This document shows, piece by piece, positions 1 through 23,195 of a stretch of DNA of 64,000 bases. Position 1 is the stretch's first letter. Each line of letters opens with the position of its first letter. The notes under the pieces were generated by a model. That model was not told the DNA's origin. It worked only from the letters and a program-made list of their open reading frames with translations, and searched no databases. The position numbers and the translations under genes were made by a program. The stretch is from Nemertoderma westbladi (Eukaryota; Animalia; Xenacoelomorpha): the NCBI GenBank assembly GCA_032718475.1, contig JAUCBJ010000735.1, forward strand, positions 47,444 through 111,443, given 5' to 3'.

Positions 1-1279
1 ACGCTGTATATATAAATAATAACGCCGTTGGACTTCTTAAATAATTTTTAGCGGATAGTGGTAGTGAAGTTAGTGTACTGTCTACACTTTATCCGATATC
101 CGTCCAGTTCCAAACATTGTATTAAAAGCGGCCAACCAAACGCATAAAGCTTCTAGTAGACTGCACTAACAATAGATTAATTCCTCATATTCTCCAGCAA
201 TGATCCAACACAAAACAAAGATACAACCAACCGCAAGTCAAAAGTGAAGCAAATTAATAAACCTGAAATCCAATCAACACCAACACTGTTCGCGCTTTTA
301 GACTTTTAACAGTTTAACCTGTTAATTTATTTGTCTTATGATGTCTGACAGCCCGCACAAAATATGACCTCAGCAGAAGCTATGTTTATTTTCAGTGAAT
401 ACCAACAGTTCCTTTTAGGTGCTGCGCTCTAAATACCACGCAGAGATATGACTTATAGTAATTACAACGGATGGGCATGAGACCACACAGTATTTACATT
501 CTTTAGGAATGTATAATTATTCGCTCGCACTTATGTCACTGAAAATAGTACTGAAACACATTAATTTGCTGACTGTCACCAATTTTAATCACAAGGAGAA
601 ATTTAACTCATGTACATTGGGGACTATGAAACATCATAAACTCATACAAACCACTGTTATTTGAGCTAGGCAATTGTGAATAGTATTCCCTTCCGCTTAA
701 CTCAATAATAAAGAAAACCAAGAGAACTACCGGTTATTCATAAGTATTCTCCAACTATTAGCATTAATCAATATGTTACAAATCACAGTATTATAACAAT
801 ATAAATTACATGGTGTGTGGCATTTAATCATCAGTCTGATGTTGTGCTATGAGAGTTGAGAGAGAGTACGAGATATATTTACTGTGTTTGATAGTTCCCT
901 GACACTCTAGCCACATGGTGTTTTGGGCTAAGTCAGAAATGTCAGAATGAATGATTTCGTCACATTACGGTATACAATACATATGTAAACAAAGAATTCG
1001 CAAAGTGAAAATCGCGCTGATTGGCCGAAATGTAACAAATATAACACAGTTTCTACACATAAGGAAACAGCTGGTAAATTTCGTCATGTTAGTTCTGGAT
1101 TAAGACAGACGCGTAGTTGCATAAGTTTATACTTCCTCCAATACCTTAGAACAATGTTGGCCTTTTTAGAGTAGTTTGTGAATTGCACAAAAACGCTACA
1201 TTTTTGCCGCAAAAGCTTTAACACCAACAATTCGAAGAATAACAGTAGAAAATGAAAAGGTCAACGGTAAGGTTAATGA

Positions 1280-1745
1280 CCTCTTGGACAAATACCCAGA
1301 CATATTTAAACCCGTAAATATTTCCCAACCCATTAAACATGATATAGAACATAATATTCTCACTACTGGACTTCCATCGCATTTTAAAGCAAGGCGACTT
1401 TTTGGCGAACGTTTGGATGAGGTAAAGAAGGTATTTGCTAATTAGGAATCCCAAGGTATTCGCTACCGTGGTGAATCCCCATATGCATCACCATTACATA
1501 TGGTTCCACAACCAAACTCGTAAACGACACCATTTTGCACTTGCGGTGATAACCCCGGTTTAAATGCTCAAACAATTCCAGATAGATATCCTATGCCGAA
1601 TTGAAGCGAAATATTAGGTGCTCTACATGAGTCTACGATATTTTCCAAATTAGATTTACAATCTGCTTAAACTTAAATACCAATAGCAAAAGATGATCAA
1701 CATAAAGCAGCAGTCATTACCCCATTTGGTATGTATATTTTTCGG
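1280..1745 (+). pseudogene. Decayed Ty3/Gypsy reverse transcriptase fragment
   Basis: Manual translation gives KHDIEHNILTTG..KARRL..ESPYASPLHMVP..CGD..LNAQTIPDRYPMP..IFSKLDLQSA..AVITPFGMYIF, the N-terminal half of a Gypsy RT, with several in-frame stops. Confidence 0.85.
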
Positions 1746-2635: not shown

Positions 2636-4891
2636 TGTAAGGTCCAGTAGTATACCGCTTACCGGATCCTAGTAACGATGTATCTTACCGTAAGATCTAG
2701 TAATGTATACGGGCTCGTACAGTATCTGACAACAAATCCCAGTCCAGGATATCTAAACAAACAGATACAATACACAAACGACTACTGGCGAGGAACAGAG
2801 CCTAGTGTCTATTCTATGTACGTGAGCGGGTCTAATGCCTACGAAACTAGACAAAAGGATACCTGTCCTCTAACCGGTGAGGCAGATGTACAGTTACAGT
2901 AACAGACCAAACTCACGGGAAAACAATCCCCGCGCAGCGAATCCTAACTATCACTGACAGTCCTAAATACCGTAACTTGCCGCGGTGTGATTTATATGGT
3001 TTATATACGAGCTAGTGGGTTAACAGACCTAGCGTAACAACACTGATTCAGTCCTAAATCAGTCGAAAGAGGGTCGTGCCTAATGTAACAATACTGCTGA
3101 ACAGGAAACAACAGTTTAATAACGAAAATGAAATGCTCTCTCTTGCCGTAACTAAATATCAGATCCTAATTTACAAATACAGATAATTTCTACCTAAAGT
3201 AATATATAGTACGCTATAACTAGTAGAACTCTAAGGGCGAATATGTTTTAGGGCGTGTGTGTGTGGGTGTGTTACAAATAAAACAATTTCATGTATCTCC
3301 TTTCACTAGGTTTTAGTGATTTTCTGACCGAAATGATACCGTGCGCTAGCTACTAAAATAAACTAGTCGCGTTTTGTAGAACTTTATACTCACAAATGAC
3401 GTCAAAGCTCTCTTCTTCCTATCCACAACTCAATGGGCAACCACGGTGTTAGTAACTACACCCGTGATCGGCACTAATACCAGATTCTGGTTGTAAGATA
3501 AGAAATAGGGGTTAATCGCTACCGTACGTTAGCTGATCTGGTATACTAATTTAATTCTAGAACTTTGTTGCCGCGGTAGTTAGCAGCAATACCTATCAGT
3601 ACGTGGCAAGGCGCGGTAGGATATTAATAAAACCTCCCTAGGCCAAGCAGTGTGCCGGTAGCAGAAATACTCCTTGCCTGATCAAATAACTAACTCCAGA
3701 CAGGGGGGGGGGGGGGGGGGTACTAATGTACGTTCTACAAAGCGAACCGGTACCAAACAGTCAGTACTACGAATCACTAAATTATGGAACATATGCTGTC
3801 CGTACCTATGTACTCGCGTACTGACGAATGGCAATAGTTCGCACCTGTGAGAAGTACAGGTTAACCCAGGGGTTCGCAGGACTGACAAAGGGGGGGGGGG
3901 GGGGGGGGGGTTCCTGTCTAAATATAATTATTTGATCCTAAATTTTGCGGCGTCCAGGACGGCGTCACGCTTACCCTGATCTATAGGTCTTACGGCGGGC
4001 AAGGGCGTCGAACAAAGTCTTACCTTTCTCACAAAGCGGGCGCTGCATGGCAAGTTGAGCATTTCGAAGGGCAAAGGGGGTGCGCGGTCAAATCCAAAGT
4101 GGGCGCTAGCGTGTTGTGGACATCTTTCCCCTGCGTTGCTGACGGCCTAACGGTCTAGGCTGCCATCTTCCCGATGTTTGGCTGTCCCAAAGTTGGACCA
4201 AAAGAAAACATGTTCAGGAATTTGCAGTATATTTACAGTTTAGCAAAGGATTTATCAAACAGATTTAACAAAGTTTCAACAAGAAACCAAATAAACTAAT
4301 AACAATGATATAAGAAGATACTAGTGAAGTATAAGGTGTAAGGGTCAAAATGATAAGGTGATAACCGAAGGCAAACCGGCCTTTTTATACTAAATATCGC
4401 ACATGGAAACCAAACAGAATTTTCCACAGCTTCACATTTGAGCAATAAAGTGTTTCGTGCCCTATGATTGGCCCAGCTCATCGTTCAACGCAGTCCGGCC
4501 CTGACACTAAATCTGGGACATGGAATCCTAACAGAATTTTCCATGGCCTCACATTTGAGCAATAAGATATTTTATGCCCCATGATTGGCCTGGCTCATCG
4601 TTCGCTACGTTGTACGCTTCTCATTGGTCCACCAATTAGCACCAAACGAAAATAAATGGCCCCAAAATACAAATTTCCCGACCAGGATTCGAACTTGTAA
4701 CCTATCTGTAATGTAACCAACGCCTTAACCATCTGACCACTACGCCACGAGAGTACCTAGGGGCTTTATGTGTACAAATATAAATAGGCAATATTACATT
4801 ACTGTAACTTAATCAAAATGCGTCGGATTTTCGAAAGTTTTTACGTTAAAGTTAAACTACATATGCTATCTTATAGTGAAATAATTCATCA
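2636..4891 (-). repeat. Element B 3' LTR (2256 bp)
   Basis: About 99% identical by eye to 19839-22070. Preceded on the minus strand by the purine tract ATGGAGCGG (4892-4900). Confidence 0.97.
4680..4746 (-). other. tRNA-like (Pol III A/B box) sequence in the B LTR; second copy at 21858-21925
   Basis: Minus strand reads GTAGTGGTCAGATGGTTAAGGCG...GTTCGAATCC, resembling a tRNA D-arm/A box and T-arm/B box. No convincing acceptor or anticodon stems. Confidence 0.65.
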
Positions 4892-5293
4892 CCGCTCCAT
4901 GAAAACAGTAAGTAAGACTGTTTTCACCAATCGAAATATAAAATGTTTACAAACTACTTATAAATCTACTGGTAGGGCCTAAAATATAAAATATAATCAC
5001 TATCTAATTATTGCATACTTAATATTGCAGATACGGCGTAAATACAATCGATCGTACATACAAATACAAATTTACTAATTAACTTTAGTGCCTAAAATAC
5101 AAAAAAGGCTTTCGGTTATCAAGGTAAGCAAATTAAACAAATCAGAACAAATAAATCAAAACAAATCGAACAAATAATTGTAACTCTTTCAATAAATCTT
5201 TACATATTGTAAATATACATAATAAACTTCCACCAAATTAAATCAGTTCAAATATAATATAAACACAATGCGCTAATAACTTTCAAATGAGTC

Positions 5294-8200
5294 TTAAAGG
5301 GTCCTCCTGACAAGCTTAAAAGTTCGTCCTACTGGTCTGGATATCTTCTCCTGAGCACTAATTGCTAACGGTAGGCTCGCAAGCCTTCCTTTCCATATCT
5401 CGCTCCTCCAAACCCAACATTCAAACATAATGTCCAATATAAATATCCAAATATAATATCCAAATATAATATCCAAATATAATATCCAAATATAATATCC
5501 AAATATAATATCCAAATATAATATCCAAATATAATATCCAAATATAATATCCAAATATAATATCCAAATCGGTAGGCTCGCAAGCCTTCCTTCTTCTCGC
5601 TTCCTATTCCTTCGCTGAGCGGGCTCGTCCACGTCCTCTAGTGCGATTGGGGGTGGTCGAGGTCGAACTGGGCTCGGACTTCGGCGTCGAGTCGTCGGTG
5701 GTTCCAAAACGCTAGGAAAGGGGACGACGGGAGTTTCGCACATCCATTGTGCGCTCAATCCTCTAAATCCTCGTCCGATTCCAACTGTCGGCTTAACATC
5801 GGATCGAGTCTCCATAACGCTAGGAGGAAGTCGAAAGGGTGGGACTGTTCCATCCGCTGACACCTCGCTCTCTGACGTCGTTTGAATCCTAATGGGTTCA
5901 GGCAAAGCGTATCCTGTCCCTCCGCGTGGTTCTCTAGCAAGGGAAACCGTGCCCCGAGTCATCCGGATTTGCGACTTCGATGTCGTCCTCTCGGCGACAT
6001 TTACTATCTTCTTTATCTCTTGTCCGGCCTTCTGGGCTTTGAGTATACGAAATTGCTGATCATCCTGTGGGTGACGCGTCTTCTCTATTAACGGCGTGGC
6101 CTTGAAGCCAGTCTCACGCAAAACGTCGGTCTCGTCTAGAATACACGAGCTTACGCGTTTGTGATAAAATGCGCTCCGGTATGCCCAAGCTATCGAATGC
6201 CAGGCTCCTCGATTCCGCTGTTCAACTCGCAGTTTATCGAATTCTCCGGCGGTAATCTTGTTCACCACAGTTTGAAAGTTCCAAGTATTCTTGTTGTCAG
6301 GGTGCTCTTGTAAGAAATAGTCCCGCTCAACTTTGAATCCACTGTCCAATGGCAATATATCCAATACCTCCAACAATTCATCATACTGAGGCATAGCCGA
6401 TACATATCCTTCCTTTGACATTATGAGAGGGTTTACGGCCCAAAATCCCAAATGTGCTCTCATAGGGAAGCGGCGTCGCTGCGTCGATACATGCTCGTCT
6501 GCTAGATCCTCCCAATGGTCGAATAATTGTCGAACGATTTTAACTGACATGTGCTCATAGGGGATGTCTCTAAGTTGACATTCGGATGCCCTATGGCCCT
6601 TAATATTACAATAAGTACACTGCGCCACGAAATGCCAGCAAGTGTAGAAAGTGTGCGAACGTTGATCCCCGCACCATTTACATACTAAATCCGGTAGAGA
6701 TATGTGCTTCGCTCCGCATTTCTTTGCGTGATGGCCAGTTGCTCCGCATCTGCCACAAATAGTGTTGGCAGGATACCAAACTCGCTCATAGATGAGATCT
6801 CCGATGGGGCGAGCGCTACCGTCCACGTGATAATTCTCATCATCCGGGTCAGTCGGTATGTTCGTCTCCGTAGGTTGTACACAAACCATGGCATCGCTTT
6901 TCTCCAACTCGCGTATCTCAGTTCGCGTCTTCCTCGGAAGGTTCTCCTCTATCTCTATGAGTTGCCGTAACGGTTCGTCTATTAGCGCCAACTCGGTCGG
7001 ATCCACATCGTCGTGATGGGCGGTAGGCTCGCGAGCGTTCCAGGATCCTTCCGGGCGTTCGAATTCCGCGTGGCGTTCCCCGTCGTAGGGTACTAACGTT
7101 AACATCGACGGTCTGTCGACTAGACTTCCCGCGTGAGTGAGATAGACGTCCCTGAAAACGCTAAGTCCCGCTCGCGTGAAAACTTCGCAGTACGCATCGG
7201 TGTTATAAAAGTGTTGGAGAAATCGTTGGAATACATCAGTATGCGTCCTTCCTCCCTCGTAAAAGGTATGTCCTTCGCCAAGACATAACGGGTGTCGATT
7301 TAGGGTTCTGGATACTACATCCGCGATGAAACAAACGTTAACCGAAGATTCTATCGCTAAATAGTATTGCAAGATTATCCGCGGAGGTGAAGTAATCACC
7401 CAATACACGCAACCTCGCCACTTCAACTGTGACTCGAACTCGTTTACGCCGGGGGTATCTCCCTCTCCGTATACGTCCGTGTATTTGCTCCTCTTACTCT
7501 CCTTGTAATCCCAACTGAACATTAGATATGAGATATAACCCGTCCCAGTTTTTAGTGTGTTATACTCCCTAAAATATCCTTGCTCAATAGCCCAAAGCAA
7601 CAATGGTCTAGTATCCACGTATGGCGTAGGCAATCGGTCCTCTTCCGTGGGCATCCCTGCAAAGTCGCTAATAAGGTCATCCCGTACACCGGATCCGATC
7701 TTGACGATGCTCTTATCCAACACAACGTCTCGCACGGCCTTTGGCAACATCCTAGCTTCTATGCTACAAGCCAGGTCCATGGATTTAACTATCCGTTTTA
7801 TCATCGCGTGTCTTTGCGTCGTTCCTTCCGGCATAGGCATCTTCCTATCACTCCTCTGTCGGCTGAAGACATGTAACACGCCATCTGGTGCTCTAATCTG
7901 TATAGTCTTCGAAGTGAGGCTTTGCTGATGGCTTCCTCCTTCATTATCGTAAAACATATAACCATTCTCCTTCAGAGATCGGCTAGTCACGTCCCAATCG
8001 TCGAGTAAATCGTCGGTAGGGTTCCAAATTCTCCCAATCGACTTTTCATCATCGAAACTAATAGGTTTACCGGTCCAATTGGTCGCGATATCGGTGTCGG
8101 TCTCAAACGTTCCAACTCCGATCCATAATCGAATCATCTTCGTCAGATATCCTCGCAAGATACAAGGTGCGATATCCGTCCCCGCGCGATCCACTTCTTT

Positions 8201-8527
8201 AAAGTCCGTAATATGTGGAGGCACGTTGCGTACGATTTTTTGAACTATTACTTTACGCAACTCGGCTGACTCTAACACATCACCGAAGGTAACCGATGGG
8301 AGGAAATCCAGGTTCGAGATGATCTCCGGGTGTTCAACTATAGGGATCTCGTAAGTTGTCTCCTTCCGGGTCGGTATACTAATAGGAAAACTAGTTGGTC
8401 TCGCAACCAGTACTATCGCTCCAGTAGAATGGGGCTGAGGTTCTCGCGTCATCTCGACATGAGGTATCTGTAGTCTCTGCGACAAACGCTGAGCAAAGGT
8501 GATACTATCGAAGAGCTCGGGTGTCAT
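5294..8527 (-). CDS. Element B accessory ORF (1077 aa): WRN/Mut-7/EXD-like DEDDy 3'-5' exonuclease domain plus three CCHC-type zinc knuckles
   Basis: ExoI FYDNEG, TIQIRAPDGVLHVF, LPKAVRDVVLDKSIVKIGSGVRDD (ExoII), YVDTR, ExoIII-like QYYLAIE (~7330-7970). Knuckles CGRCGATGHHAKKC, CKWCGDQRSHTFYTC, CTYCNIKGHRASEC. Confidence 0.8.
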   Translation of the reverse strand: MTPELFDSITFAQRLSQRLQIPHVEMTREPQPHSTGAIVLVARPTSFPISIPTRKETTYEIPIVEHPEIISNLDFLPSVTFGDVLESAELRKVIVQKIVRNVPPHITDFKEVDRAGTDIAPCILRGYLTKMIRLWIGVGTFETDTDIATNWTGKPISFDDEKSIGRIWNPTDDLLDDWDVTSRSLKENGYMFYDNEGGSHQQSLTSKTIQIRAPDGVLHVFSRQRSDRKMPMPEGTTQRHAMIKRIVKSMDLACSIEARMLPKAVRDVVLDKSIVKIGSGVRDDLISDFAGMPTEEDRLPTPYVDTRPLLLWAIEQGYFREYNTLKTGTGYISYLMFSWDYKESKRSKYTDVYGEGDTPGVNEFESQLKWRGCVYWVITSPPRIILQYYLAIESSVNVCFIADVVSRTLNRHPLCLGEGHTFYEGGRTHTDVFQRFLQHFYNTDAYCEVFTRAGLSVFRDVYLTHAGSLVDRPSMLTLVPYDGERHAEFERPEGSWNAREPTAHHDDVDPTELALIDEPLRQLIEIEENLPRKTRTEIRELEKSDAMVCVQPTETNIPTDPDDENYHVDGSARPIGDLIYERVWYPANTICGRCGATGHHAKKCGAKHISLPDLVCKWCGDQRSHTFYTCWHFVAQCTYCNIKGHRASECQLRDIPYEHMSVKIVRQLFDHWEDLADEHVSTQRRRFPMRAHLGFWAVNPLIMSKEGYVSAMPQYDELLEVLDILPLDSGFKVERDYFLQEHPDNKNTWNFQTVVNKITAGEFDKLRVEQRNRGAWHSIAWAYRSAFYHKRVSSCILDETDVLRETGFKATPLIEKTRHPQDDQQFRILKAQKAGQEIKKIVNVAERTTSKSQIRMTRGTVSLAREPRGGTGYALPEPIRIQTTSESEVSADGTVPPFRLPPSVMETRSDVKPTVGIGRGFRGLSAQWMCETPVVPFPSVLEPPTTRRRSPSPVRPRPPPIALEDVDEPAQRRNRKREEGRLASLPIWILYLDIIFGYYIWILYLDIIFGYYIWILYLDIIFGYYIWIFILDIMFECWVWRSEIWKGRLASLPLAISAQEKISRPVGRTFKLVRRTL
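5436..5569. repeat. 15-bp tandem repeat (ATATCCAAATATAAT)~8-9
   Basis: Directly visible; flanked by two copies of the 20-nt hairpin motif. Confidence 0.95.
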
Positions 8528-9323
8528 CTCCTTGGGTTCGGTTTGATCGTGGGATATCCAATAGAATGGTAGGCTCGCGAGCCTTCCGCCGAACTCCTCG
8601 ATCTCGCCTTTCTTCCCGTTTCTCTTGTGTCGACTTATTAGACTCGTCCACTACCATGCTGTAGACGTCTGGTTCGACTAATTTGGGTTCGTAAATAACG
8701 ATCTCACCCGCGTTCGGTCCACTCATTTTAAACGAATGATACGGATTTGTCAAAGGGTATCCGCCTTCTTGGTAACGTAGACTTTGGTGGTGTGAACATC
8801 GCGCTAATATCGGCTCGGGGTTCTCCGAGTTCAACCGCATAGGAATTGCGTTGTCTTGCTCGCGCATACATGCTCCACATTTATAAAACAGTTTGTATAT
8901 GGAGAACGCGTCCTTGGTCTCTGGATCCGCTCCTCGAGCGCGTCTATAAAGATGCATTCCTTCAAATTCGTCTCTAGCTGCGGGTAAGGGTTCATTTACT
9001 GTCAAATATTGCAGCGTATGATACAATCGGCGTATTTCGGTGTCTGGATCCTCGCAAATGTCGCTAGCGTCGCATAACGCATCGTAGGGATATAACGCAT
9101 TGAACTCCGCGCGTAATTCCTCCGTTCTTTTGTTGTATGCGTCCAACCGCTGTCGCGTAACATTCGGGGCCGCCTTGGATTTAGCGAGCTTGGCCGTACT
9201 CCTAGCCATACTCTCCACTCCAAACACACTAAAGTTTTTAGCTCCATAAAGATTGAATGGTGCCTGGTGCTCTTGTTCTTGCGTAAACCCTTGACATAAC
9301 TCTTTATACATCTTCTCCGCCAT
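8505..9323 (-). CDS. Element B accessory ORF (272 aa), putative Zn-binding protein of unknown function
   Basis: ATG-initiated open frame overlapping the start of the next ORF by 23 nt. Has a CxxC...CxxH motif and visible homology to the accessory ORF of C. Confidence 0.8.
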   Translation of the reverse strand: MAEKMYKELCQGFTQEQEHQAPFNLYGAKNFSVFGVESMARSTAKLAKSKAAPNVTRQRLDAYNKRTEELRAEFNALYPYDALCDASDICEDPDTEIRRLYHTLQYLTVNEPLPAARDEFEGMHLYRRARGADPETKDAFSIYKLFYKCGACMREQDNAIPMRLNSENPEPILARCSHHQSLRYQEGGYPLTNPYHSFKMSGPNAGEIVIYEPKLVEPDVYSMVVDESNKSTQEKREERRDRGVRRKAREPTILLDIPRSNRTQGDDTRALR

Positions 9324-10051
9324 CGTATATGAATATATATGTGGTTACATATCGTTACGTTTCTACTAGATGAAGCACAAAATAGAGGTTAGATGTGAGG
9401 TGACTTAGAGTTTGTCGGCTTTTGGCTCAACTCTGCTCTAAACCCCAACCCATTTGCCTAATGATTTCGGGTTCGCGTGATTTTGCACTGGCTCCTAATC
9501 CAAAAAATGTGCCGATAAAAAACGAATTCCGGGTAAACTAGCCTTTTAATTTCACCTTTTAATTTCCCATGCTACATTCCCCAAGAAAATAGTGCAGTCG
9601 AGAATTAATTGGTCTAAATAATAGTAGACACGACTACGTAGAACAAGGCCGATTTTCTTTTCCAAAAAAAAATTTTTCGGTAGGCTCGCAAGCCTTCCAT
9701 CCGCTCTTGTCCTCCCCAATTTTAATTTTTATCTAGCTGTATTCTAGAATTTGCTTTCACTGGAGAATCGTTTTTCTTAAATTTAAATCCAAATAAATGG
9801 ATTTGTCTAATAATTTTTGAAAAATTGTCTCACTTGTGGGTTCCAAGTGGAATTCCATTCCTACTGTACACACAATCCCGCTCCTATGTGATACATAAGG
9901 GTACTACCCTCCATGTTCACGTATAAAGACAATGGAATTCCACTGCTGTCTCTATCTACAGTGAAGAGGATTACAAATGCACGTACAGTAATACAAATAC
10001 AAATAATTAAAATACAGTAGGTCTATGTGGCGGCCAATCAAGGTCCCACAT

Positions 10052-13000
10052 CTATTTACTAATATTGGGTGGAGATTTGTAGTCTCCTGTCTCGTTTCTA
10101 GTCTCTTCAAGGAGTACGAGACGTTGTACAGGCCTATCTACGGTACGTCCGTCGATAGTCCTTACAGTAACTGTCCTCACTACACCAGATGTAGGGTGCG
10201 TGGTCAAAATGACTCCAGTCAACCAAAACCGTCTTTTCAGATTAGCTTCAGCCAATAAAACATGGTCACCACGTCTTAAACATCGGGTATTTAGATACCA
10301 AGAGGTTCTGGTTGAAATAGAGGGCAAATAATATTTCTGCCATATTTCCCAGAATTTATTTGCAAGTAATTGAGTGATTTTCCAAGCCTTGTTGCCGTAT
10401 CCGTCACTATCAACGGGTACCGAAATGGGCAACAATGTCGTTGGCGCCTGCATAAGCAGGTGCGCTGGTGTCAAGGCAAACTGTACGTCGTTATTGTCTG
10501 GGATCAGAGCGATCGGTTTAAGATTGCTTCGATTTCTATTAGTAACGTCGTCAGTTGGTCGTCTGTCAATATGTGTTGCGTCGGTAGGACTTTAGCCATA
10601 GCTGTCTTAATTGAGCCAATCAGCCTTTCCCAAACGCCGCCTCTCCACGGACTGTCAGGAGTGTTGAAATTCCAAACAATACGGTGAGGACGCAGTTCCT
10701 CGGAAATCTGGTTTTGGTCCAACTTTCTCAAAGCTCTGGTTATCTCGTTTCGTGCACCCACAAAGTTTGTCCCTTGGTCGCAGTAAATGGATTTGACCAA
10801 TCCACGTCTAGCGATAAATCGCCGTAAGGCTAGGATAAAGGCATTGGTGGTCAAATCTGTCACTCGCTCTATATGGACAGCTCTGCTGGCCATGCAAGTG
10901 AAGATCAATCCCCAACGTTTTACCTGTACCCTTCCGCGTTTCGCGATTATGGGTCCAAAACAGTCTATCCCTGTCTCAGTGAAAGGGGGTCTAAACGCCT
11001 GTAATCTAGCTAATGGTAGTTCACTCATTTCTTGGTGTCCTATCCTCGCGTGCACCTTCTTACAAATCATACAGTTCCGTGTTACCGAACTCAGTGCCTT
11101 ACTAGGTCTAATCAGTACAAACCTCGAGCGTAAGTGTGATAGACAGTGGTGTCTACCCACGTGTTTGAGTTGTACATGTGCGTCCAGTATCATAGGGCGC
11201 TGTAATTCATGGTGTTGTGGTATGATGATAGGATACCTAAAGTCAAGTGCAAAGTCGATGTTTTGGAGTCTGGACTTGTGACAAAGTAAGCCCCGGTAAA
11301 TAATCGGACTCCAACTCAAAATCGGTGAAGACTTAATCTGTTTACCTTGTTTGATCGCTGTGAACTCTCGTGCGAAATATCGCAATTGATAATGTCGAAT
11401 GATATCAACTTCACAGTGGCCAACTTCCTTTAAGGTAAGTCTTCTAGGAAAGTCGCGTTTGCCTCTGGCATATTGTCTCAATCGTTTGAGCCATGCTAAC
11501 TTGCGGCACGCATCAGTCCATGATCTAGTTAGGTTCACTATCCTGTCAATGTAAGTGTTAGTGACGTCATCAGGTAAGGTGTAGTCGTAGTGTGGATACT
11601 TGTCTGGACTTGGTAGGCCCACGGGCCTTCCGGTAGGTTTGTCTGAGTCCCCAAGTACGTCAATCTTTACGGTCTTACCTTTACCGTCCGCACCTAATGT
11701 GTCGACTGGCAGTAACGGTTTCAACTCTACAGTGTCAGTGTGTTCCTGTGAGCCTGTAAGCTTCCTAACCTTAGTCACACGTTTACCTGTAGGTAGGTCA
11801 AGTACTTTCTTTGAGCGGAGTGTGATCGCTGTGGCCACACCTTTGTCGTCCAAAGAAGTCAAATTCGGTAAGTCTCTAAAGGTCCGCTCCAATGGGTCTT
11901 TTAGTGGAGTATCTAGTAGACAGTCTGGTGAAGCGTCCGGTGAACAGTCTGGCGAGACGTCTGGTGAGACATAGCGCGGAACTTCCAGCGAAATGTCTTG
12001 TCGTCGGTCCCAAAGTCTGTCTGGCGTAACTTCCGTCAGAAAGTCTGGTTCAAAGTCTGGTGGACAGTCTGTCGAGATGTCTGGTGGAAAGTCTGGTGAG
12101 ACGTCCGGTAGACATTCTGTCGAGAGTTCCATCAAACAATCTGGCAAACAATCCGGAGAACAATCTGGTGTTGCTTCTGGTGAATAGTCTGGCGAGTGAT
12201 CTGGTGAACAATCCGGCGAAACGTCTGGTGAAATCTCCCGCGGAACATCCGGCGAAGGATTCGTACAAGCGTCTGGTCGAATGTCTGGTGAGACGTCTGG
12301 CGTAATGTCAGGTCTGGCATCCAGGTCATCAGATTTCGTCCGTCCTTTTTTCCTCTTGACCTTGGCGTTGGCTTTCGCTTTAGACTTGACAACCTTGTCG
12401 ATTTTTATCTCGGCACCCTCTGGTATGGTGTTGGTTGTCGCGTCGAATAACGGTGGCCATTCGTCTGATGGTCGCTGTAGGAAATCGGGTCCTCTAAACC
12501 AAAAGGATTTATTGTCCGGTTTACAAAAGTCAAGCGGTTGCATCCCCCGTGACGCGATGTCAGCTGGGTTCAGCTTCCCTGGACAGTGACGTCAATCTTG
12601 TTTGAGCGACCGGTCAGGTATTTCAGCCCGTCTGTTGGCTACGAAAGTCTTGAACTCAAACGCTTTGTTGTTTATGTACCAAAGTACCAACGTCGCATCC
12701 ATCCAATATGTGACCTTCAAGTTAGCCTCCAGCTCGCATTGAACTAGACTGACAATATCGGTGGATATCGTCCCGGCTTGCAGCTCCCCACGAGGTACAG
12801 TCATATACTTCAATGGCATTGTTCTAGCCCTTGAAGTAACGAGAGATACATCGTAGCTGTCCGATTTCACTTGTCGTCTAAGGTATAAAGTAACCCCCAA
12901 TCCATCCTTGCTAGCGTCACTAAAGCTGTGAAGCTCTAAATCGGCAGGAAAGGTGGTTTGCAAAGGAAAGTATACCCTCGGTATGGTATATTCTTGTAGG

Positions 13001-16000
13001 AACGTCAGTTGGGCTTCCCAGTCCCTCCATCGCTCAGCTAACTTTTCTGGGATGGGATTGTCCCATTCCAGTCCGGCTTGCCAAATGCTGCGGAGTATGA
13101 TCCTGGCATGTAGGATCACTGGACTAATGAAACACAATGGGTCATACAATCGACTCATGGTCGATAAGCAAGTCCTCTTAGTGAGAGGTCTAGTCTGGTC
13201 GTTGGACCTTACACGTACCCTAAAGTTGTCCGTGTTAGGGTCCCAACTAAGTCCTAATACTTTGGTCGTCGGCAGAGGTTCTAGGTCTAAGTCCAAGTCA
13301 CCTCCACTGCGATCCATCGGGTCAAATGAGTTCACCAGCTCGGGTTCGTTGGAAGCGAACTTCGTCAGGTGAAATCCGCCCTCGGCGAGACAATCCTGGA
13401 GTTGGTGTGCTACGGTTGTAGCGCGCTCCAAGGTGTCACAACTCTTGAGGCCGTCATCCACGTAGAAATCTCGTTCCACGGTCCGAACTACTTCTGGGTC
13501 AAATTGGTCTCGTCTGTCTAATGCGGTCTGCTTTAATGCGTACATGGTGCAGTTGGGGCTGTCCCTGGCTCCGAATACTCATACCTGCATTTGGTAAGTT
13601 TCTGGCGGAAGTTGTAAGTTTCCATCCGGATACCAAAGAAACCTCAAGCTGTCCCTGTCCCGCTCCAAAGCCTTAACCTGGTGAAACATGGCCTCTACGT
13701 CACAGGTGAAAGCCACTTTGCGTTGTCTAAAACGCATTAGGACTCCCATGAGGTAATTGTTCATATTCGGCCCGTCCATCAGTTCGCTATTCATAGACAT
13801 CCCTTGGTAAAGCGCGGCGCAGTCATTGACTACACGCACCTTGCCAGGTTTGTCCGGGTGTCGAACAAAATGATGTGGCAGGTAATATGTCTGGTCTGTG
13901 GTTACCTCGGGATTTAACATCCTAATGGCGTATCCCTTTTAGAGATACGTCTGAAGTTGTGCATTGTATTGCATATGGGCCGTCTCGTCTCGCAACAATC
14001 GCTGCCTTATTGATTTGAGTCGCCTCAAAGCAAGCGGGTAATTGTTAACGAGCTTAGGTTGTCCATTGCGCCACAACATACCAACCTCATAGTGGCCATT
14101 CGCGGTCTGGCGAATGGTATCTCTCATAATATTTAATGACCGTTTTTCCTGTTCTGACATAGCGGTCTCGTAACTACCGGGTTCTGCTGAGTCCTGTTCC
14201 AACCATTGAATGGTCCGTTCAGTCAGCAGTCGGTCAAGCGCTGCTTGCACTGCGCCATGGTCCTCGTCCACGTCTTCGTCCGCTGTGGTGGCTAGTGTCA
14301 ATGTGTCTGGTAGGCTCGCAAGCCTTCCGGTGTCACTAGTCGGCGTCGAATCGTCGTGCGGCGGTTTGACAACTTCTTGATCTATCGGTAGGCTCGCAAG
14401 CCTTCCAAGATCAACGACCGGTGTCGAAGCCTGGTGGGTGGGGTCAATGACCTTCGGATTTTTCGGTAGGCTCGCAAGCCTTCCAAAATCCTCGTTCATC
14501 GAGTCATCCATGGCAACAACCCTTTGGTCTTCAGTAGTCAATACAACCTGGTCTACTGCAAGTAGTTGTAAGTCAGAGGTCCGTATGGTCGTGTCCAGAT
14601 CGGTTACGTCAGTATCGGTGGCGTCTGCGTTTGCGACGCAAGTCTGTCGTAGTGCCGTCTGTACAATTGGACCACAGGAGTGTGAAGGAGAATTATCTAT
14701 CGTGTTAGTCAATAAACTACACGTACTCAAAACGTCGTCCTCCTGGTCACTTACCTCTAGTGAACGTATTGGTGCTCTAGTATACCAACCTATGGGAGTT
14801 CTACATGCGTAGGGGTTGCCCGCTGTAATAACAGATGGGCGTGTCTCCCATACCTGATGTAAGTTAAACTGGTCTGTCCCAATTAACATCGCAATGGAAC
14901 GATAATTAACAGGACATTCCGGTATTCCAAGGTGTCGGAAATACTTACGATCTTCCGGTGATTGCTCTGGCACAGGGCCGAGCAAGTTACTAAAGTCCTT
15001 CGTAGCTGCAAAGGTCAAATTTCTTACCGGAAGTAATGAGCGCTCCTCCTTGCTGTGTTCCGCTTTGGAAAGAAGAGTGTCTAAAGTTAGTTTTACTCTC
15101 GTCACAGGGATCGCTCTCTTACCATGCATGCTGCTTACAGTATACTGAGCAGTCTTACCTTGACTCATGTCCGTAACTACGTCGGCTACTTGTTCGTCGA
15201 CATAGCTATGTGATGACGCAGAGTCTAAGATGGCGTATATACGCTTGCTCCCTCGGGTTCCGGTAATCTTTATAGGAATCATGCTAAACCCTTTCAGTTG
15301 GTTCTGTGTGAGGAGCGTTATCGAACGCTGTTCCTCACCTGCATGCACGTAGAAAGTGTCGTCTTCCTCCTCGTTCTCGTCCGATGATCCTGACTGATCC
15401 ATACAGTCTGTATAAAAGGTACGGATCTCGCGCAGCGCATGCTCCTTGTAAAGCGCGTCGCATCTAGCCGCTTTATCTGGATGCTCTCGTCGAAAGCGTC
15501 TGGTCGGAGTATGACTGGTTGTGTGAAGCAACGCGTCATGGTTACGTCCACACAGAGAACATGTATCGTCGCTCGGGCAATCCTTCCGGACGTGTCCTGG
15601 CTTCATACATCTCCAACAGGAATCTAACGATCGAATTTGGAGTCTCCTTTCTTCAATCCCTAACTCCTTAAAAGCGCAACATCCACGAAGTTTATGTCCG
15701 CTGTAGTTTCTGCCGTTCTGTTCGCAGTACGAGAATCCCACAAAGTCCGCTGGCAACTGCTGTCGTGGCTGCGTGGTGCCGATAGGCATCAGAACTTTAG
15801 AAGTCTCAGTAGGGGTGGCGTAAGTAACGGCTTTCGCGTTCGTCGGAAGTGGTTTAGTCCGATTCGGCGCAGATATAGCTATCCCTTCCGCCGCGATATG
15901 GTGATCGGTATAGTTCGATCGAGTCTCGATCACGGCCTCCCGTGAAATCAGTTGATAGACATCGGTGAGTTTTAATAACCCTCCGGCCTCTTCACGCTGG

Positions 16001-18880
16001 TACTCGATGCGTCGCCATTCTCGTCGGAGTCGATGGTGAAGTCGACCGATTATTCGAATGAGAACCGTCGGTGCGTTAGCGTACTCGAGTTGTCCAATGG
16101 ATCGTAAAGTCCCTATAGCGTTCTTGATTTTGTCCGCGAGTCGTAAAAGGTCGATTGGTTTCGAAATGTTGCCTCCTCTGCAGAGGTCTTCGATAATGGA
16201 TTTAGCCATGGCGACGTTACCTCCGTAAATCGAATATAAACGGTCGTACGCCAACTCAAAGGCATCGGGAACACCAATAAAGGTTTCCACTAATCGTTTC
16301 GGCTCACCAGACAGAACTTGGAGCAAGTAATTAAACTTCTCCGTCGAGGTGAAAGCATACTTAGCGATCTGGGACTCTACGTAGTCTACCAGTGTGCGCC
16401 AGTGTTTCGCGTTGCCAGAGAACTTTGGCGGTTGCTGTGCCGGTAATCCGTGTCTAGCCGCGAATTTCGCAATCTCGCTAACTAAGTCCAACTGTCCGCG
16501 TCCCTGTTCGGCGGCGTCGTCCAGTCGCTCCCTTCCGCGCGTTGTTCGTCGGTAGGAATTATTAACGGGATCTTCTTCTCGATGTGTCGGAGTCCGTCTA
16601 GTCTCCTGTTCTCTCCTTGGTGGTCGATGTTGTCTAGGTTGTTCCAACTCCACGCTGGTTCGTGATCGATCCGACGGTTGCGCTTCGAGTCGTTCTTCGA
16701 GTTGAGCTATTCGGTCCGTCATCTCGGTGAACTGTTTGGCGCTGATCGTTTCCGCTGGTTTCAATGTGGGTTTCTGTTGGGGTGTTTCTCGAGGTGGATT
16801 GTCGATGTATGGATTTGTCGACCTCTCCTCTCGTTTGTAATCCTCCGCCGCTCCAGTACGGAATATTTCCCGTTCCGTCGACTCCGAGTCGCTGGATGAG
16901 TCGCTGTCGTCCGGATAAGGTGGCTGGCGGGTTTGTGTCCGGCGTATTATTCTTGGTCTCGTCCGTTGTGGTCCGGGATCTACGGCTCTCCATTGTTCGG
17001 TAGGCTCGCAAGCCTTCCACGAAGTCGTAGGTCTCGTTATGCGTTGTCCGATCCCGTGGGTACTACCCACATCCATCCTCCTCCGTTGTTCGGTAGGCTC
17101 GCAAGCCTTCCACGAAGTCGTAGGTTGCGTCGAACATTGTGTCAACGGTCGAGTGAAATAGTCGGGTTTCGTAGTCGGTCTATAAATAACTGGGTTCGCA
17201 CAGCACGTCACAGGTTTAACTTGTAATGGTTTACTCACCTGTTTAATGGTCATAAACGCAGGTTCCTCTCTTCCTACAAGTAGACTACGACTTACTGTAG
17301 GTGGACTAGTTATGTTACCTGCTAAAATTGGTGATGAAGTCGCCCTAGGTTGCGGTATTTCTGTCACAACAAACCTGTTGCCTTGCGTCGAACGCACAGG
17401 CGTTATTTCCTTAGGTTTCGTAACAAAGACCGGTTTTATCGAAGTCGCGGGTTTGAGCATAGGAATAACTTGGGGAAAACGTTTACAGTAATCCTCGACG
17501 AACTCCTCTCCTCGATCTATCGCTCCCACACTTCCTTCCTCGATTCGCTTCTGTATTCCGCGATATCGAGCTTCCATACGATCCAGGGCAGACAAGTCCT
17601 GTCCAGCTCGCGATCTTATAGATCTATCTCTCGCGTCGAGTTCAAGGTCCGCTTGCGCGTTTGCTGCCTCACGAGATCTACGATTCAATTCGAACTGTAG
17701 TTGCATCTCCCTTTCGCGTCGATCCGCTACTTGTTGTTGTGCCGCTAACTCCGCTTCCTGTATAGCTAAACGAGTGGCTATTTGTCGCGCTTCCAACTTG
17801 GCGCGAGCGTCGGATGCTGCTTTCTTCCGTGCTAATTTGTCGGCTGCCGCCGCTGCGGCTGCTTCTTGCGCTAAATCTTCCTCTAGTCTCCTCATCTCTG
17901 AGGATTCTAATTCTGCTTGCGCCTTGAGTTGCGCAATTTTTGTCTCATCTTCTCTATATTGTTTCTCTCCCTCGATGGCGATCTGTGCCATCTGGTGTTG
18001 CGCTTCTTCCTCGGCGACTTGTTGTCGGCGTGCAACCTCCTGTTGTTGTCGAGTAATCACAGACGCTGTCCTACTAACGTCGCCAACGTCGCTCCGCATG
18101 CTAACGAACGATCTATCCAGAGGTGGATGCTGGTAGGCTCGCGAGCCTTAGTGAGAACTTCCGTCGTCCCTCGCGGTTCGACTTCCGGTTCTTCGATCGG
18201 TACGCCGCATCTACGAAGAAAATTGGTGATCGTTTCCAACCTCCCGTCCAGGCAGTAGAGTTCTTCTTCCTCTTCGGGTTGTAACAACGCGTCCGAAACT
18301 GACTCACCTAGCAGTTGGTCAAACTGCTCCTGTTGAGCCAATCTTATCACCGACTTAAACTGGATAAGGCTTTCTCTCGCACTTACCAACTTGTCTATTA
18401 TCTTTACCTGAGTAAAGTTATCACCACGCAACTCTGCAAGTTCGTGTAAACCTTTAAGTTTATCTACGGAGCTATGCTCCGTAGGATAAGACTTTCTATC
18501 CTTACTTGTAAGGTGTAGAACTCGTATCTCAACATCGGGGCGGTTAACTCGCGTAAAACGCGAAAACCTTCTCCGAGGTTCCGAGTAATCTGGGCCATGT
18601 GTCCTCCTATACTCCTAATAACGTTCTCCTGGCTTCCAGTCGAACTTACCATGTCCGGTTCCCGCGATCTAGTCTGCGGGACGGTAAGGAAATCTTTGAT
18701 TCTGCCGTCGCCACGCGTTGCGGCTTCCGGTATTTCCGTTCGGGGTACCGGCGACGCAAGCGGTGTGACATCGGTGGAATCCCGGGTTCTCCTTCTCGGT
18801 TCGTCTACTGTCGATCTGTCCGGGTCGCACGAGTCATAGTCGGTAGGTGGGTATCTCGTCGAATGGGGTGTGTCACTCAT
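10052..18880 (-). pseudogene. Element B gag-pol polyprotein (BEL/Pao), disabled
   Basis: Gag (PPKFSG..EKFNYL; CWRCMKPGHVRKDC, CSLCGRNHDALLH), protease ILDSASSHSY, RT YLPHH..KVRVV..FYVDD, RNase H FSDAS..PRGEL, integrase H-H-C-C, GIDCFGP, CDQGTNF, GVWERL. In-frame stops at ~13940, ~13580, ~12593; frame changes near 18450, 18080, 10500. Confidence 0.95.
11900..12320 (-). repeat. Degenerate 12-bp coding repeat (xSPD/CPD tetrapeptides) between RNase H and integrase
   Basis: Translation PDITPDVSPDIRPD...SPDCSPDHSPDYSP. Confidence 0.85.
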
Positions 18881-19828
18881 GTCTTATTATATACGTCAAG
18901 TACGGGTAATAAAATGTCAAAGTGTCTGAATGTTGAAGTGTCAAACTTACCTTGTTATATATAGTATATATATACCCTAACCGGTACAAATAAATCAACA
19001 AGTCAGAATGTCGAAATGTCAAAATGTCGAAATGTACAAATGTCAAACTTACCTTGATATATATATATATCATTTATATACCCTAACCGGTACAAATAAA
19101 ACTAACAAAGTATATAATAAAATAAGTAATAATCTAGCCTACCGGCTAAATTTGTACGAATAAATGAGATAACGGTATACGTTACCAAAATATAGATCAA
19201 AAAGTACAAATAATAGGCAAAACAGCAATGTCTAACGGGAAAATAAGTACCAACAACACTACTAATAGACAGTGAAACCCACAAATTTTGAGTACTACTG
19301 TGCTTTTTTAAGTTTAAACGACGCGAGTCGTAAAACTTACGTTCCTTTGATCTTCCAGTCGTACAAATTCCCAAATACAAACCGGACGTGGGTCGTTCCT
19401 TTTTTTCGGCGGCGCGGACGAATTTATTGTCTCCCAAACTTTGCGAAAAGCGGTCTAATCCTCGAAGCGGTCCAGAAATGAGTCCTTGAGTCCTGAAAGG
19501 TCGAAGGTGAGAGTTTTACTTCTACGCTATGAAAAATCTTCCTAGGTACCGATACAAATTGGTCTTTAAACCCTATGTACCTTTTCAAGTACCGAAAGTA
19601 ACACCGCACACACACGGCGTAAAACAAAGTGCTACAAACTAACTGTTAGCTAGTCAAATATTAAATACGAAAGTACTAGCTACCCTAAAAGCCTACTGAA
19701 GCAGGGGACGTTCTAAATTACTAAATTTACTAACCTTAAATTTTAAATATCTCCTACTTTCAATAGCTAACAGATCTAAATAATACTATACACTACGGTA
19801 GAAATACTATATACTAATTTATATAAAA

Positions 19829-19838
19829 TACTTCTCAC
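19829..19838 (-). promoter_or_regulatory. Element B atypical PBS (GTGAGAAGTA), complementary to LTR site 21045-21054
   Basis: Immediately follows the 5' LTR end; no TGG; perfect 10-nt inverted match inside the LTR. Confidence 0.7.
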
Positions 19839-22070
19839 TGTAAGGTCCAGTAGTATACCGCTTACCGGATCCTAGTAACGATGTATCTTACCGTAAGATC
19901 TAGTAATGTATACGGGCTCGTACAGTATCTGACAACAAATCCCAGTCCAGGATATCTAAACAAACAGATACAATACACAAACGACTACTGGCGAGGAACA
20001 GAGCCTAGTGTCTATTCTATGTACGTGAGCGGGTCTAATGCCTACGAAACTAGACAAAAGGATACCTGTCCTCTAACCGGTGAGGCAGATGTACAGTTAC
20101 AGTAACAGACCAAACTCACGGGAAAACAATCCCCGCGCAGCGAATCCTAACTATTACTGACAGTCCTAAATACTGTAACTTGCCGCGGTGTGATTTATAT
20201 GGTTTATATACGAGCTAGTGGGTTAACAGACCTAGCGTAACAACACTGATTCAGTCCTAAATCAGTCGAAAGAGGGTCGTGCCTAATGTAACAATACAGC
20301 TGAACAGGAAACAACAGTTTAATAACGAAAATGAAATGCTCTCTCTTGCCGTAACTAAATATCAGATCCTAATTTACAAATACAGTTAAGTTCTACCTAA
20401 AGTAATATATAGTACGCTATAACTAGTAGAACTATAAGGGCGAATATGTTTTAGGGCGTGTGTGTGTGGGTGTGTTACAAATAAAACAATTTTATGTATC
20501 TCCTTTCACTAGGTTTTAGTGATTTTCTGACCGAAATGATACCGTGCGCTAGCTACTAAAATAAACTAGTCGCGTTTTGTAGAACTTTATACTCACAAAT
20601 GACGTCAAAGCTCTCTCCTTCCTATCCACAACTCAATGGGCAACCACGGTGTTAGTAACTACACCCGTGATCGGCACTAATACCAGATTCTGGTTGTAAG
20701 ATAAGAAATAGGGGTTAATCGCTACCGTACGTTAGCTGATCTGGTATACTAATTTAATTCTAGAACTTTGTTGCCGCGGTAGTTAGCAGCAATACCTATC
20801 AGTACGTGGCAAGGCGTGGTAGGATATTAATAAAACCTCCCTAGGCCAAGCAGTGTGCCGGTAGCAGAAATACTCCTTGCCTGATCAAATAACTAACTCC
20901 AGACAGGGGGGGGGGGGGTACTAATGTACGTTCTACAAAGCGAACCGGTACCAAACAGTCAGTACTACGAATCACTAAATTATGGAACATATGCTGTCCG
21001 TACCTATGTACTCGCGTACTGACGAATGGCAATAGTTCGCACCTGTGAGAAGTACAGGTTAACCCAGGGGTTCGCAGGACTGACAAAGGGGGGGGGGGGG
21101 GGTTCCTGTCTAAATATAATTATTTGATCCTAAATTTTGCGGCGTCCAGGACGGCGTCACGCTTACCTCTTACGGTGGGCAAGGGCGTCGAACAAAGTCT
21201 TACCTTTCTCACAAAGCGGGCGCTGCATGGCAAGTTGAGCATTTCGAAGGGCAAAGGGGGTGTGCGGTCAAATCCAAAGTGGGCGCTAGCATGTTGTGGA
21301 CATCTTTCCCCTGCGTTGCTGACGGCCTAACGGTCTAGGCTGCCATCTTCCCGATGTTTGGCTGTCCCAAAGTTGGACCAAAAGAAAACATGTTCAGGAA
21401 TTTGCAGTATATTTACAGTTTAGCAAAGGATTTATCAAACAGATTTAACAAAGTTTCAACAAGAAACCAAATAAACTAATAACAATGATATAAGAAGATA
21501 CTAGTGAAGTATAAGGTGTAAGGGTCAAAATGATAAGGTGATAACCGAAGGCAAACCGGCCTTTTTATACTAAATATCGCACATGGAGACCAAACAGAAT
21601 TTTCCACAGCTTCACATTTGAGCAATAAAGTGCTTTATGCCCTATGATTGGCCCAGCTCATCGTTCAACGCAATCCGGCCCTTACACTAATCTGGGACAT
21701 GGAATCCTAACAGAATTTTCCATAGCCTCACATTTGAGCAATAAGATATTTTATGCCCCATGATTGGCCTGGCTCATCGTTCGCTACGTTGTACGCTTCT
21801 CATTGGTCCACCAATTTGCACCAAATGAAAATAAATGGCCCCAAAATACAAATTTCCCGACTGGGATTCGAACTCGTAACCTATCTGTAATGTAACCAAC
21901 GCCTTAACCATCTGACCACTACGCCACGAGAGTACATAGGGGCTTTATGTGTACAAATATAAATAGGCAATATTACATTACTGTAACTTAATCAAAATGC
22001 GTCGGATTTTCGAAAGTTTTTACGTTAAAGTTAAACTACAAATGCTATCTTATAGTGAAATAATTCATCA
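19839..22070 (-). repeat. Element B 5' LTR (2232 bp)
   Basis: Direct repeat of 2636-4891. Contains an internal ~120-bp CCAAT-containing duplication (~21590-21785), and a TATA-like TATATTTA (~21112-21119) with Inr-like TCAGT (21079-21083) on the minus strand. Confidence 0.97.
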
Positions 22071-22075
22071 TTTGG

Positions 22076-23184
22076 TTTAACAGACATAAAAAGCCGTTTC
22101 CTTACTGTACCGGTGTTTTAGTGGACATAAAAAGCCATTTCTTCTGTATGTGTACTTTAGCGGACATAACTAGCGATTTTATGTCGCAATACGCTAAAAT
22201 CCTCTTGACACAGTGTAGTTATTATGACGACGGCTAACAGCTGATCTGTACACATGGAGCTTTTCCTTTGTCTCTTTGTTCGGACAACCAATCACAGCGA
22301 TTCTCCTGATATTTGTACAGAAACCTCCAGTAAATCGCGCAATGCATTACTGTTTATGTTTACATTTTTTCCTGATGCCAGAAGACCGGCTTTGGAATCT
22401 CTGTGTTTTCAGGCTTGAGCAAAACATTAGTAGGCTTGATCATAGAACGTATAACCGTTATCAAACAAACAATTCATACCTAATCAAACAAAACAATTAA
22501 AACACCGCATTTTTACTGCTATTTACTGTCGGTTATTAATTATATCAGTTGATGGAATATTATTATATTGGGATAATATCGATCAATAATCAGAAACCCC
22601 AATCTTCTTGATATACTGAAGGTTAGAGAGACCGGTTGCATATAACAATTGCGACTTACATTATATTGGTTTTGGAGTGAATCTAATGCTATTTCATAGG
22701 CACTACATGAGTCAGTGGTTGTTCTCTTTATATGTGACTAAAATTAGTGAAGGTCGGCAGATCGGTGTGCAGCATTGTGCGGTAGTGTGCATGATTGTGA
22801 CTGATAACGAAGCATCTCCTAAAGAATGCGCTTTATACGTGAATCCATAGCCATCCCGTTGTGTCTAGTGTAAGTCATAACTCTGTTTACATATTTAGAG
22901 CGCCACGTCCTAAAGGAACTGTTAATATTTCCCGAAAGTGAAAAATATTGGTCAGAGATTATATATTAACAATCAGTCGAATAATACAGTAGGCCTACAC
23001 CGCAATAAGGTCAAAGCTTCCGAATCCAGTCTCCCGGGTATATCCAGCGGGTGAATGGTCGCGCATAGACTGGCTTCGGCTAATGTAGTGTATCAAATAC
23101 TCGTCATAGGCTAAAGTCGATTTATAATCTAGAAGACATCTAAATTTGGCAGGTTAAACTGCTAAAGGTCTGAAAGTGCGAACA
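22076..23184 (+). repeat. Element A 5' LTR, distal part (proximal 58 bp at 2578-2635)
   Basis: Joining the two parts reproduces 46286-47356, which has a ~96-bp deletion between GTGT microhomologies. Confidence 0.95.
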
Positions 23185-23195
23185 ATAACGGTTAT
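23185..23195 (+). promoter_or_regulatory. Element A atypical PBS (ATAACGGTTAT), complementary to LTR site 22451-22461
   Basis: Abuts the LTR end; no TGG; reverse complement ATAACCGTTAT lies in the LTR. Confidence 0.75.

Follow-up and report, generated by a model that had tools for sequence, protein, structure and literature searches.

DEDDy-type 3'-5' exonucleases are known as the third open reading frame (ORF3) of the Juno and Vesta retrotransposons with long terminal repeats (LTRs) and of Terminons in bdelloid rotifers, where the catalytic motif reads DEED and, in the accessible parts of the reports, no function has been demonstrated (PMC5408684, PMC6431247). Among cellular enzymes, T. brucei RNase D (TbRND) joins a DEDD exonuclease to four CCHC fingers through which the RNA is bound as it is trimmed, a layout described in the accessible text as very unusual (PMC7797062). 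Self-priming of reverse transcription, in turn, has been described for Tf1-type elements (PMC4600332, PMC3601003). Here, a 64,000-nucleotide stretch of Nemertoderma westbladi DNA (GenBank assembly GCA_032718475.1, contig JAUCBJ010000735.1, positions 47,444 to 111,443 of the forward strand; hereafter the window) was found to harbor a BEL/Pao LTR retrotransposon that has a primer-binding site (PBS) complementary to its own LTR, and whose fourth frame (ORF4) encodes a predicted DEDDy exonuclease domain followed by zinc knuckles. The coordinates of all features are given in Table 1.

As anticipated in the original prediction, ORF4 is an open sense frame of 1077 amino acids (aa) between pol and the 3' LTR. 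Its proposed env position holds insofar as it lies downstream of pol, but the env-like slot is occupied by a 272-aa frame, ORF3, and ORF4 is the second of two extra ORFs. The predicted motifs were all recovered (D194-N-E196, KIGSGVRDD at 276–284, VDTR at 304 and Y389-x-x-x-E393), as were three CCHC knuckles starting at residues 591 (CX2CX4HX4C), 616 (CX2CX5HX4C) and 637 (CX2CX4HX4C). Also in agreement with that prediction, no signal peptide or env signature was detected: the best N-terminal 19-aa hydropathy is 0.13, no Pfam env family is matched, and ORF4 lacks the conserved transmembrane (TM) anchor and the homology to viral fusion proteins expected of an env glycoprotein. The C-terminal ∼100 residues are hydrophobic (hydropathy up to 2.05) and are encoded by a 13-nt tandem repeat. 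Among copies this tail varies in its number of repeats, and close to codon 960 there is also an indel of one base, which accounts for 32%, 69% and 53% of the summed contig depth (a quantity distinct from copy number) in three runs. Because the repeat varies in number and frame among copies, the C-terminus is not an env anchor, and the tail is probably not conserved protein. A nested insertion was ruled out as the source of ORF4, which carries the hairpin motif of the element and has the same repeat-family coverage. Patchy cover of ORF4 in run X6, guessed to be RNA, says nothing on its expression.

An exhaustive phmmer search of 1.84 billion representative sequences with the ORF4 protein (P0001) returned three hits, and only two have the full architecture, a nuclease-like domain and then three knuckles: P0002 (558 aa; E 5.8e-5) and P0004 (535 aa; E 6.3e-4), both singletons, encoded on ENA contigs of 7460 and 18,621 bp, respectively. 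The third hit, P0003, is a 160-aa repeat protein that matches only residues ∼576–632 and was dropped. With the knuckles left out, alignments of the nuclease regions compared with shuffled sequences gave z scores of 17.4 (P0002–P0001), 8.2 (P0004–P0001) and 12.3 (remaining pair), and a hidden Markov model built from P0002 and P0004 alone ranks ORF4 first of the 1169 frames of the window (E 3.4e-9). The stretch that follows the knuckles looks alike by eye, but its z scores are 2.8, 0.2 and 1.1 and it was not counted as a domain.

Assignment of the family to a known nuclease class proceeds through its members. P0004 matches the PF01612 profile (DNA_pol_A_exo1) with E 1.1e-5 to 6.2e-5, its whole-protein score being 23.3 bits against a cut-off of 23.6, and is the only one of the three members to do so; in Pfam, ORF4 itself recovers only zf-CCHC (E 0.016, below the cut-off). 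A profile of the three sequences run against 177,635 PDB sequences gave three hits at E up to 10, all weak, the top one being the mouse WRN exonuclease (E 0.34) and the third EXD2 (E 1.1); PDB searches with single proteins returned weak knuckle matches only. In the ESM Atlas, the first hit of residues 150–470 is a WRN-like exonuclease (0.91), and all ten of the best named hits belong to one family or clan. The assignment to the DEDDy class thus has good, though indirect, support from homologues and profiles, and by these comparisons a DnaQ-like fold for the nuclease region is very likely. An accessory protein kept by selection but folded differently, its acidic motifs having arisen by chance, would account for P0001 having neither a direct Pfam or PDB match nor a usable model; this is a very improbable explanation, given that four partly independent lines agree on the WRN/EXD type and that all four motifs occur in order and spacing.

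Further searches added no relatives. A word-indexed search with residues 120–720 of P0001 recovered none of 2892 candidates (lengths 592–1885), the alignment A1 recovered none of 4032 and missed its own members, indicating poor sensitivity, and P0004 retrieved only itself. No locus or match for the family was found in metagenome contigs, viral contigs or phage. The homologue searches found no host orthologue, and a host Nibbler/Mut-7/EXD gene as the captured source of ORF4 is at most a hypothesis.

The catalytic positions vary within the family. P0002 reads D-x-E, D and YxxxD, P0001 reads D-x-E, D and YxxxE, and P0004 reads S-x-E, D and YxxxN. E196 and D284 are invariant in the three proteins, and D194, E196 and D284 are in register with P0002, so that ORF4 has the Exo I D-x-E and the Exo II aspartate and departs from the Exo III YxxxD at E393. 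As judged from the alignment, this substitution would lower the standing of ORF4 as a canonical active member rather than its capacity to work like a DEDDy exonuclease.

A 20-nt hairpin motif is dispersed over the element. Allowing up to three mismatches, 11 copies were counted on the sense strand, against none in each of 100 shuffles and none in positions 22072–64000 of the window. The hairpins occur in non-coding stretches as well as in gag, pol and the two extra ORFs, in differing frames, and one has a compensatory pair; three are inside ORF4 and another is just upstream of its ATG. Since it is read in different frames, the motif is a signal at the RNA or DNA level, and it is a candidate packaging or protein-binding signal that could be a ligand for the ORF4 knuckles or Gag. 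These 11–12 element-specific copies, together with the Exo III D to E change in P0001 and the S and N substitutions in P0004, would suit a catalytically weak or dead RNA-binding adaptor, whose fold caps an RNA 3' end and whose knuckles read the hairpins in packaging, stability or localisation. Mut-7, EXD1 and Maelstrom are discussed in the accessible parts of the rotifer study, and the dead DEDD derivatives EXD1 and Maelstrom retain RNA binding (PMC5408684). Such an adaptor is nevertheless unlikely: three acidic residues and the tyrosine are kept, the fourth position is still a carboxylate, P0002 has the full set, and the Gag knuckles could already read the hairpins.

Six sequencing runs contain part of the stretch, and copy analysis was based on three DNA runs. 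In these, 6941, 3354 and 188 contigs map to the element, many of them less than 90% alike, so the family is multi-copy with diverged subfamilies. For the nuclease region (7300–8000), variant places were taken from four runs, two of them of one sample. Among the best 40 of its 121 variants, ranked by support in a way that may favour old, shared variants, 34 are synonymous and 6 nonsynonymous (pN/pS ∼0.07), 34 fall on third codon positions, and none alters D194, E196, D284, Y389 or E393; no indel was listed at a share of 3%. Over the whole of ORF4, which holds 28 of the places among the 40 listed of 636 variants, segregating sites are 10 synonymous to 2 nonsynonymous, versus 3 to 13 at sites private to this decayed copy (p 0.0016). 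Sites at which nearly all contigs differ from this copy reflect neutral decay. Selection on ORF4 reaches at least codon ∼900, and diverged subfamilies match best, through loose contig ends, over the Exo I (7890–7971) and Exo III (7323–7383) stretches. ORF4 is under strong purifying selection among copies; the original prediction had been made to stand or fall by this property, which is clearly present.

The same evidence bears on a possible anti-silencing role, in which the ORF4 protein would bind or trim the 3' ends of piRNA or siRNA, or would be a competitor of Nibbler/Mut-7/EXD1 of the host, thereby shielding the RNA of the element. The closest folds are of the WRN/EXD type, which in animals includes proteins of small-RNA pathways, the element family is present in abundance (6941 contigs in one run), and action in trans is possible, which fits an amplified deletion form described below. 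Even so, this role appears rather unlikely, as host-conflict proteins often evolve fast and ORF4 combines strong purifying selection with no sign of rapid amino-acid change; nor was any link to a host partner encountered.

The predicted self-complementary PBS was borne out. Primer sites of the tRNA type start with TGG; this PBS does not begin with TGG, and the 11 bases adjoining the 5' LTR pair with LTR positions 21045–21055 through ten Watson-Crick pairs and one G-U pair. A 10-mer of this kind arose in 12 of 2000 LTR shuffles, and the pairing can be extended by four pairs across a 4-nt bulge. The PBS complement is also the pyrimidine tract of an acceptor-like site: a branch motif lies just before it, the splice AG follows immediately, and it reaches to within two bases of the predicted intron end, with the two consensus donors 124 and 161 nt upstream. 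When the 11-mer was kept unchanged, the AG, the branch motif and an upstream donor occurred together in 3 of 5000 shuffles, in a post-hoc test designed after the pattern had been seen. If the predicted intron were excised, its tail paired with the PBS would overhang by two bases, the first of them mismatched. Integrase requires a particular cDNA terminus, which is obtained when the end of the primer coincides with the LTR boundary; with such an overhang, a 3'-5' trimmer would therefore have a job. The best TATA motif, at LTR position 503, is ∼500 nt before the PBS complement, a poor fit to a primer made of the first bases of the transcript.

Other readings of the LTR signals were considered. 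An exon-exon junction as primer was set aside, the PBS complement being already contiguous and not preceded by AG. The minus strand of the 2.2-kb LTR has three acceptor-like (20690, 21043, 21501) and two donor-like (21167, 21204) motifs. Eight bases at the end of the exon that precedes the 21204 donor are complementary to the PBS-pairing stretch, with which they could form an alternative RNA stem.

Signals that could serve expression of the extra ORFs are found elsewhere in the element. The stop of ORF3 overlaps the start of ORF4 by 23 nt. The acceptor at 9366, upstream of ORF3, is the only site of strict pattern on the sense strand of the element (a laxer scan gives 9), and the 5' leader contains a pair of consensus donors; an env-style subgenomic RNA carrying ORF3/ORF4 is therefore predicted. 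Searches with ORF3 returned no known family. It weakly matches (E 1e-4) an extra ORF of a neighbouring BEL/Pao family at 38921–39721, the resemblance being noted also with 44835–45800 (both on the plus strand). Three of the five ORF3 variants among those listed are synonymous.

By analogy, the tentatively favoured reading is that the ORF4 protein trims RNA of the element itself in the manner of T. brucei RNase D and may in this way finish the self-primer, which is most plausibly the best candidate among its substrates. A spliced subgenomic RNA would express ORF3 and then ORF4 by stop-start reinitiation; the knuckles would hold single-stranded RNA like the fingers of TbRND, the D-E-D-YxxxE site would trim the RNA 3' end, and trimming would stop at the duplex. 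In its most specific form, the proposal has the intron excised from the LTR leader pairing through its 3' tail with the PBS, and removal of the 2-nt overhang would allow reverse transcriptase (RT) to start exactly at the LTR end. Priming by the tail of a spliced leader intron, with a dedicated exonuclease-knuckle protein removing the two terminal bases, is in itself improbable; if true, it would mean that a retroelement primes by combining the splicing of its host with a trimmer that it encodes itself. DNA might also be the substrate, ORF4 trimming frayed or over-extended cDNA 3' ends (for example, where an unremoved self-primer has been copied) before integration, or proofreading RT. WRN, the best structural neighbour by profile, is a DNA exonuclease, and the DEDDy domain of the Dada transposase has been proposed to process DNA 3' ends (PMC3706591, accessible parts). 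Activity on cDNA is quite improbable, however, since the triple CCHC knuckles point to single-stranded RNA and the similarity to WRN, weak as it is (E 0.34), is silent on substrate.

Several observations weigh against an active nuclease that trims the self-primer. P0001 alone has no exonuclease match in Pfam or PDB, and its fourth acidic residue is E instead of D; the S-x-E...YxxxN site of P0004 looks catalytically dead, which would mean that some members of the family do not catalyse. With the Atlas hit, 157 of 256 features are shared, fewer than the 170 typical of hits in the same family, and shuffled proteins reach 0.9 in 4–10 of 100 cases. The expectation of a DnaQ-like fold was thus upheld by sequence evidence and received no structural support: AlphaFold models from one and three sequences have pLDDT values of 33.6 and 31.8 and offer no usable structure. 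On these models Foldseek gave no hits at E 0.001 and VIA-align a best Z of 6.0 to unrelated sheets, results that carry no weight either way. A deletion form (5733 to 8761) that is without nearly all of ORF4 and the end of ORF3 has amplified and reaches a notable depth in two runs, X3 and X4, and ORF4 is therefore not needed in cis. The neighbouring BEL/Pao family is self-priming without an ORF4-like frame in the window, though its copies also lack RT and integrase, and its primer complement is not at a splice acceptor. Finally, RNase H alone is enough for Tf1 to produce its self-primer, according to a title cited in PMC4600332.

The element carrying ORF4 is assigned to BEL/Pao, as originally predicted, because Peptidase_A17 (E 5e-40), DUF1759 (E 4.8e-10) and DUF5641 (E 3e-19) are present; the protease, RT, RNase H and integrase domains follow in this order, between LTRs with TG...CA ends and a short target duplication. 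Its size is within the BEL/Pao range and close to the maxima given in the accessible parts of PMC3118150 (a 22,762-bp element and a 2,427-bp LTR). The duplicated target bases are at 2631–2635 and 22072–22076, and an empty copy of the target site occurs near 46340; the element therefore inserted itself into an LTR that belongs to a different BEL/Pao family. This copy is decayed, as judged by breaks in gag and pol. Between the RNase H and integrase domains, pol has an insert of ∼150 codons (11900–12170, minus strand) made of a proline/aspartate-rich 12/24-nt repeat. An Rfam search of the element gave no match.

The neighbouring family forms a tandem array (2578–2635 and 22072–47356, plus strand) with LTRs at 28564, 40193 and 46286, plus the interrupted one. 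Its copies have a gag-protease region and no RT or integrase. Its self-complementary PBS is likewise of 11 bases, with other letters, and shows a matched two-sided change between the copies at 23185 and 29736. Elsewhere in the window are a non-LTR reverse transcriptase ORF of 839 codons with short tandem repeats on its flanks (49791–52310, minus strand), a decayed gypsy-type RT-like fragment read by eye (1200–1740, plus strand), and a 34-nt satellite array of more than 80 overlapping copies (60600–64000).

Table 1. Features of the BEL/Pao element and its extra ORFs (positions in the window).
Feature	Position	Strand	Remarks
Full-length BEL/Pao LTR retrotransposon, 19,436 bp	2636..22071	minus	LTR pair, TG...CA ends, 5-bp target duplication
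5' LTR, 2233 bp	19839..22071	minus	versus 3' LTR: 2206 matches, 26 mismatches, 4 gaps
3' LTR, 2256 bp	2636..4891	minus	preceded by short purine-rich tract common to neighbouring family
gag-protease region (DUF1759, knuckles)	13939..18880	minus	frame changes/stop near 18150–18600
pol (RT, Peptidase_A17/RNase H, integrase, DUF5641)	10052..13938	minus	stops at 13581 and 12594; frame change near 10500
Extra ORF3, 272 aa, without known family	8505..9323	minus	between pol and ORF4
Extra ORF4, 1077 aa from ATG (P0001)	5294..8527	minus	open throughout
Predicted WRN/EXD-type DEDDy exonuclease domain, aa ∼176–410	7298..8002	minus	homologues, profiles, selection
Predicted catalytic residues	D194 7946–7948, E196 7940–7942, D284 7676–7678, Y389 7361–7363, E393 7349–7351	minus	
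Three tandem CCHC zinc knuckles, aa 591–650	6578..6757	minus	arrays alike in P0002 and P0004
13-nt tandem repeat, 11.4 copies, encoding hydrophobic pseudo-tail of ORF4	5422..5569		variable among copies
20-nt hairpin motif, 12 copies	5370..18151	minus	near-palindrome; 5-bp stem, 4-nt loop, extra 2-bp stem
Hairpin copies	5370, 5571, 7022, 8568, 9679, 11612, 14309, 14387, 14465, 16999, 17092, 18132	minus	
Predicted splice acceptor 43 nt upstream of ORF3	9366..9392	minus	CTRAY, at least 75% pyrimidine, YAG
Two consensus splice donors in 5' leader (19053, 18951)	18945..19053	minus	candidate subgenomic mRNA donors
Non-tRNA PBS, 11 bases directly after LTR CA	19828..19838	minus	pairs with LTR 21045–21055
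Candidate self-primer: PBS complement inside 3' splice-site-like motif	21043..21062	minus	pyrimidine tract behind a branch motif, with an AG whose last base is 21043
Pair of consensus splice donors within LTR (exons end at 21204, 21167)	21161..21204	minus	predicted LTR intron of 161 or 124 nt

In the literature covered, which left aside most subscription papers and Repbase, no BEL/Pao element with DEDDy cargo, no retroelement exonuclease-knuckle ORF and no report of BEL/Pao self-priming was found. The closest described cases are the rotifer ORF3s. Like those of Juno, Vesta and Terminons, ORF4 is a non-env extra ORF after pol with a DEDDy-type 3'-5' exonuclease, an altered acidic motif and no TM segment or signal. 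In contrast, its host is a BEL/Pao element, while the accessible parts of the rotifer study name Juno, Vesta, TelKA and Mag (PMC5408684); its motif is DEDE rather than DEED; and it is a protein of ∼960–1077 aa with three fused CCHC knuckles, encoded by the second of two extra ORFs. The purifying selection on ORF4 also differs from the pattern in the rotifer ORF3s tested (env-like, GDSL), which look neutral in the accessible text (PMC5408684). Rotifer DEDDy proteins are absent from the homologue hits of the P0001 family, and the likeness rests on description.

In layout, ORF4 resembles TbRND, in which a DEDD 3'-5' exonuclease also precedes tandem CCHC fingers. TbRND is a cellular mitochondrial protein with four fingers after a linker of ∼28 aa, whereas ORF4 has three knuckles after ∼180 aa (PMC7797062, accessible parts). 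The sequence match of TbRND to the ORF4 family is weak and at knuckle level (7c42, E 0.26), suggesting a functional analogue without implying homology of the fusion. With the WRN exonuclease, EXD2, EXD1 and Mut-7/Nibbler (PF01612), ORF4 shares the order of Exo I, II and III and the LP...KxG...D segment; it differs from them by inserted segments, one following Exo I and one preceding Exo III, by YxxxE and by having no helicase or other host domains. The Dada transposase is a further case of a DEDDy domain carried by a transposon, there a DNA transposon with the full DEDD set inside the transposase (PMC3706591, accessible parts).

As for priming, Tf1 and Tj1 also have a PBS directly after the LTR that is complementary to LTR-derived RNA of the element itself. 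These are gypsy-type chromoviruses, and their primer is the mRNA 5' end cut by RNase H (PMC4600332, accessible parts). In the present element, unlike in Tf1/Tj1, the complement is ∼1 kb into a 2.2-kb LTR, at the end of a predicted intron, and an extra exonuclease is carried. Retroelement DEDDy cargo has so far been a rotifer curiosity, without evidence for function or selection. ORF4 extends such cargo to BEL/Pao and adds strong purifying selection and a knuckle array of RNA-binding type. As the same element offers two candidate substrates, a self-primer with a predicted 2-nt overhang and a hairpin in 12 copies, the function of the cargo becomes testable.

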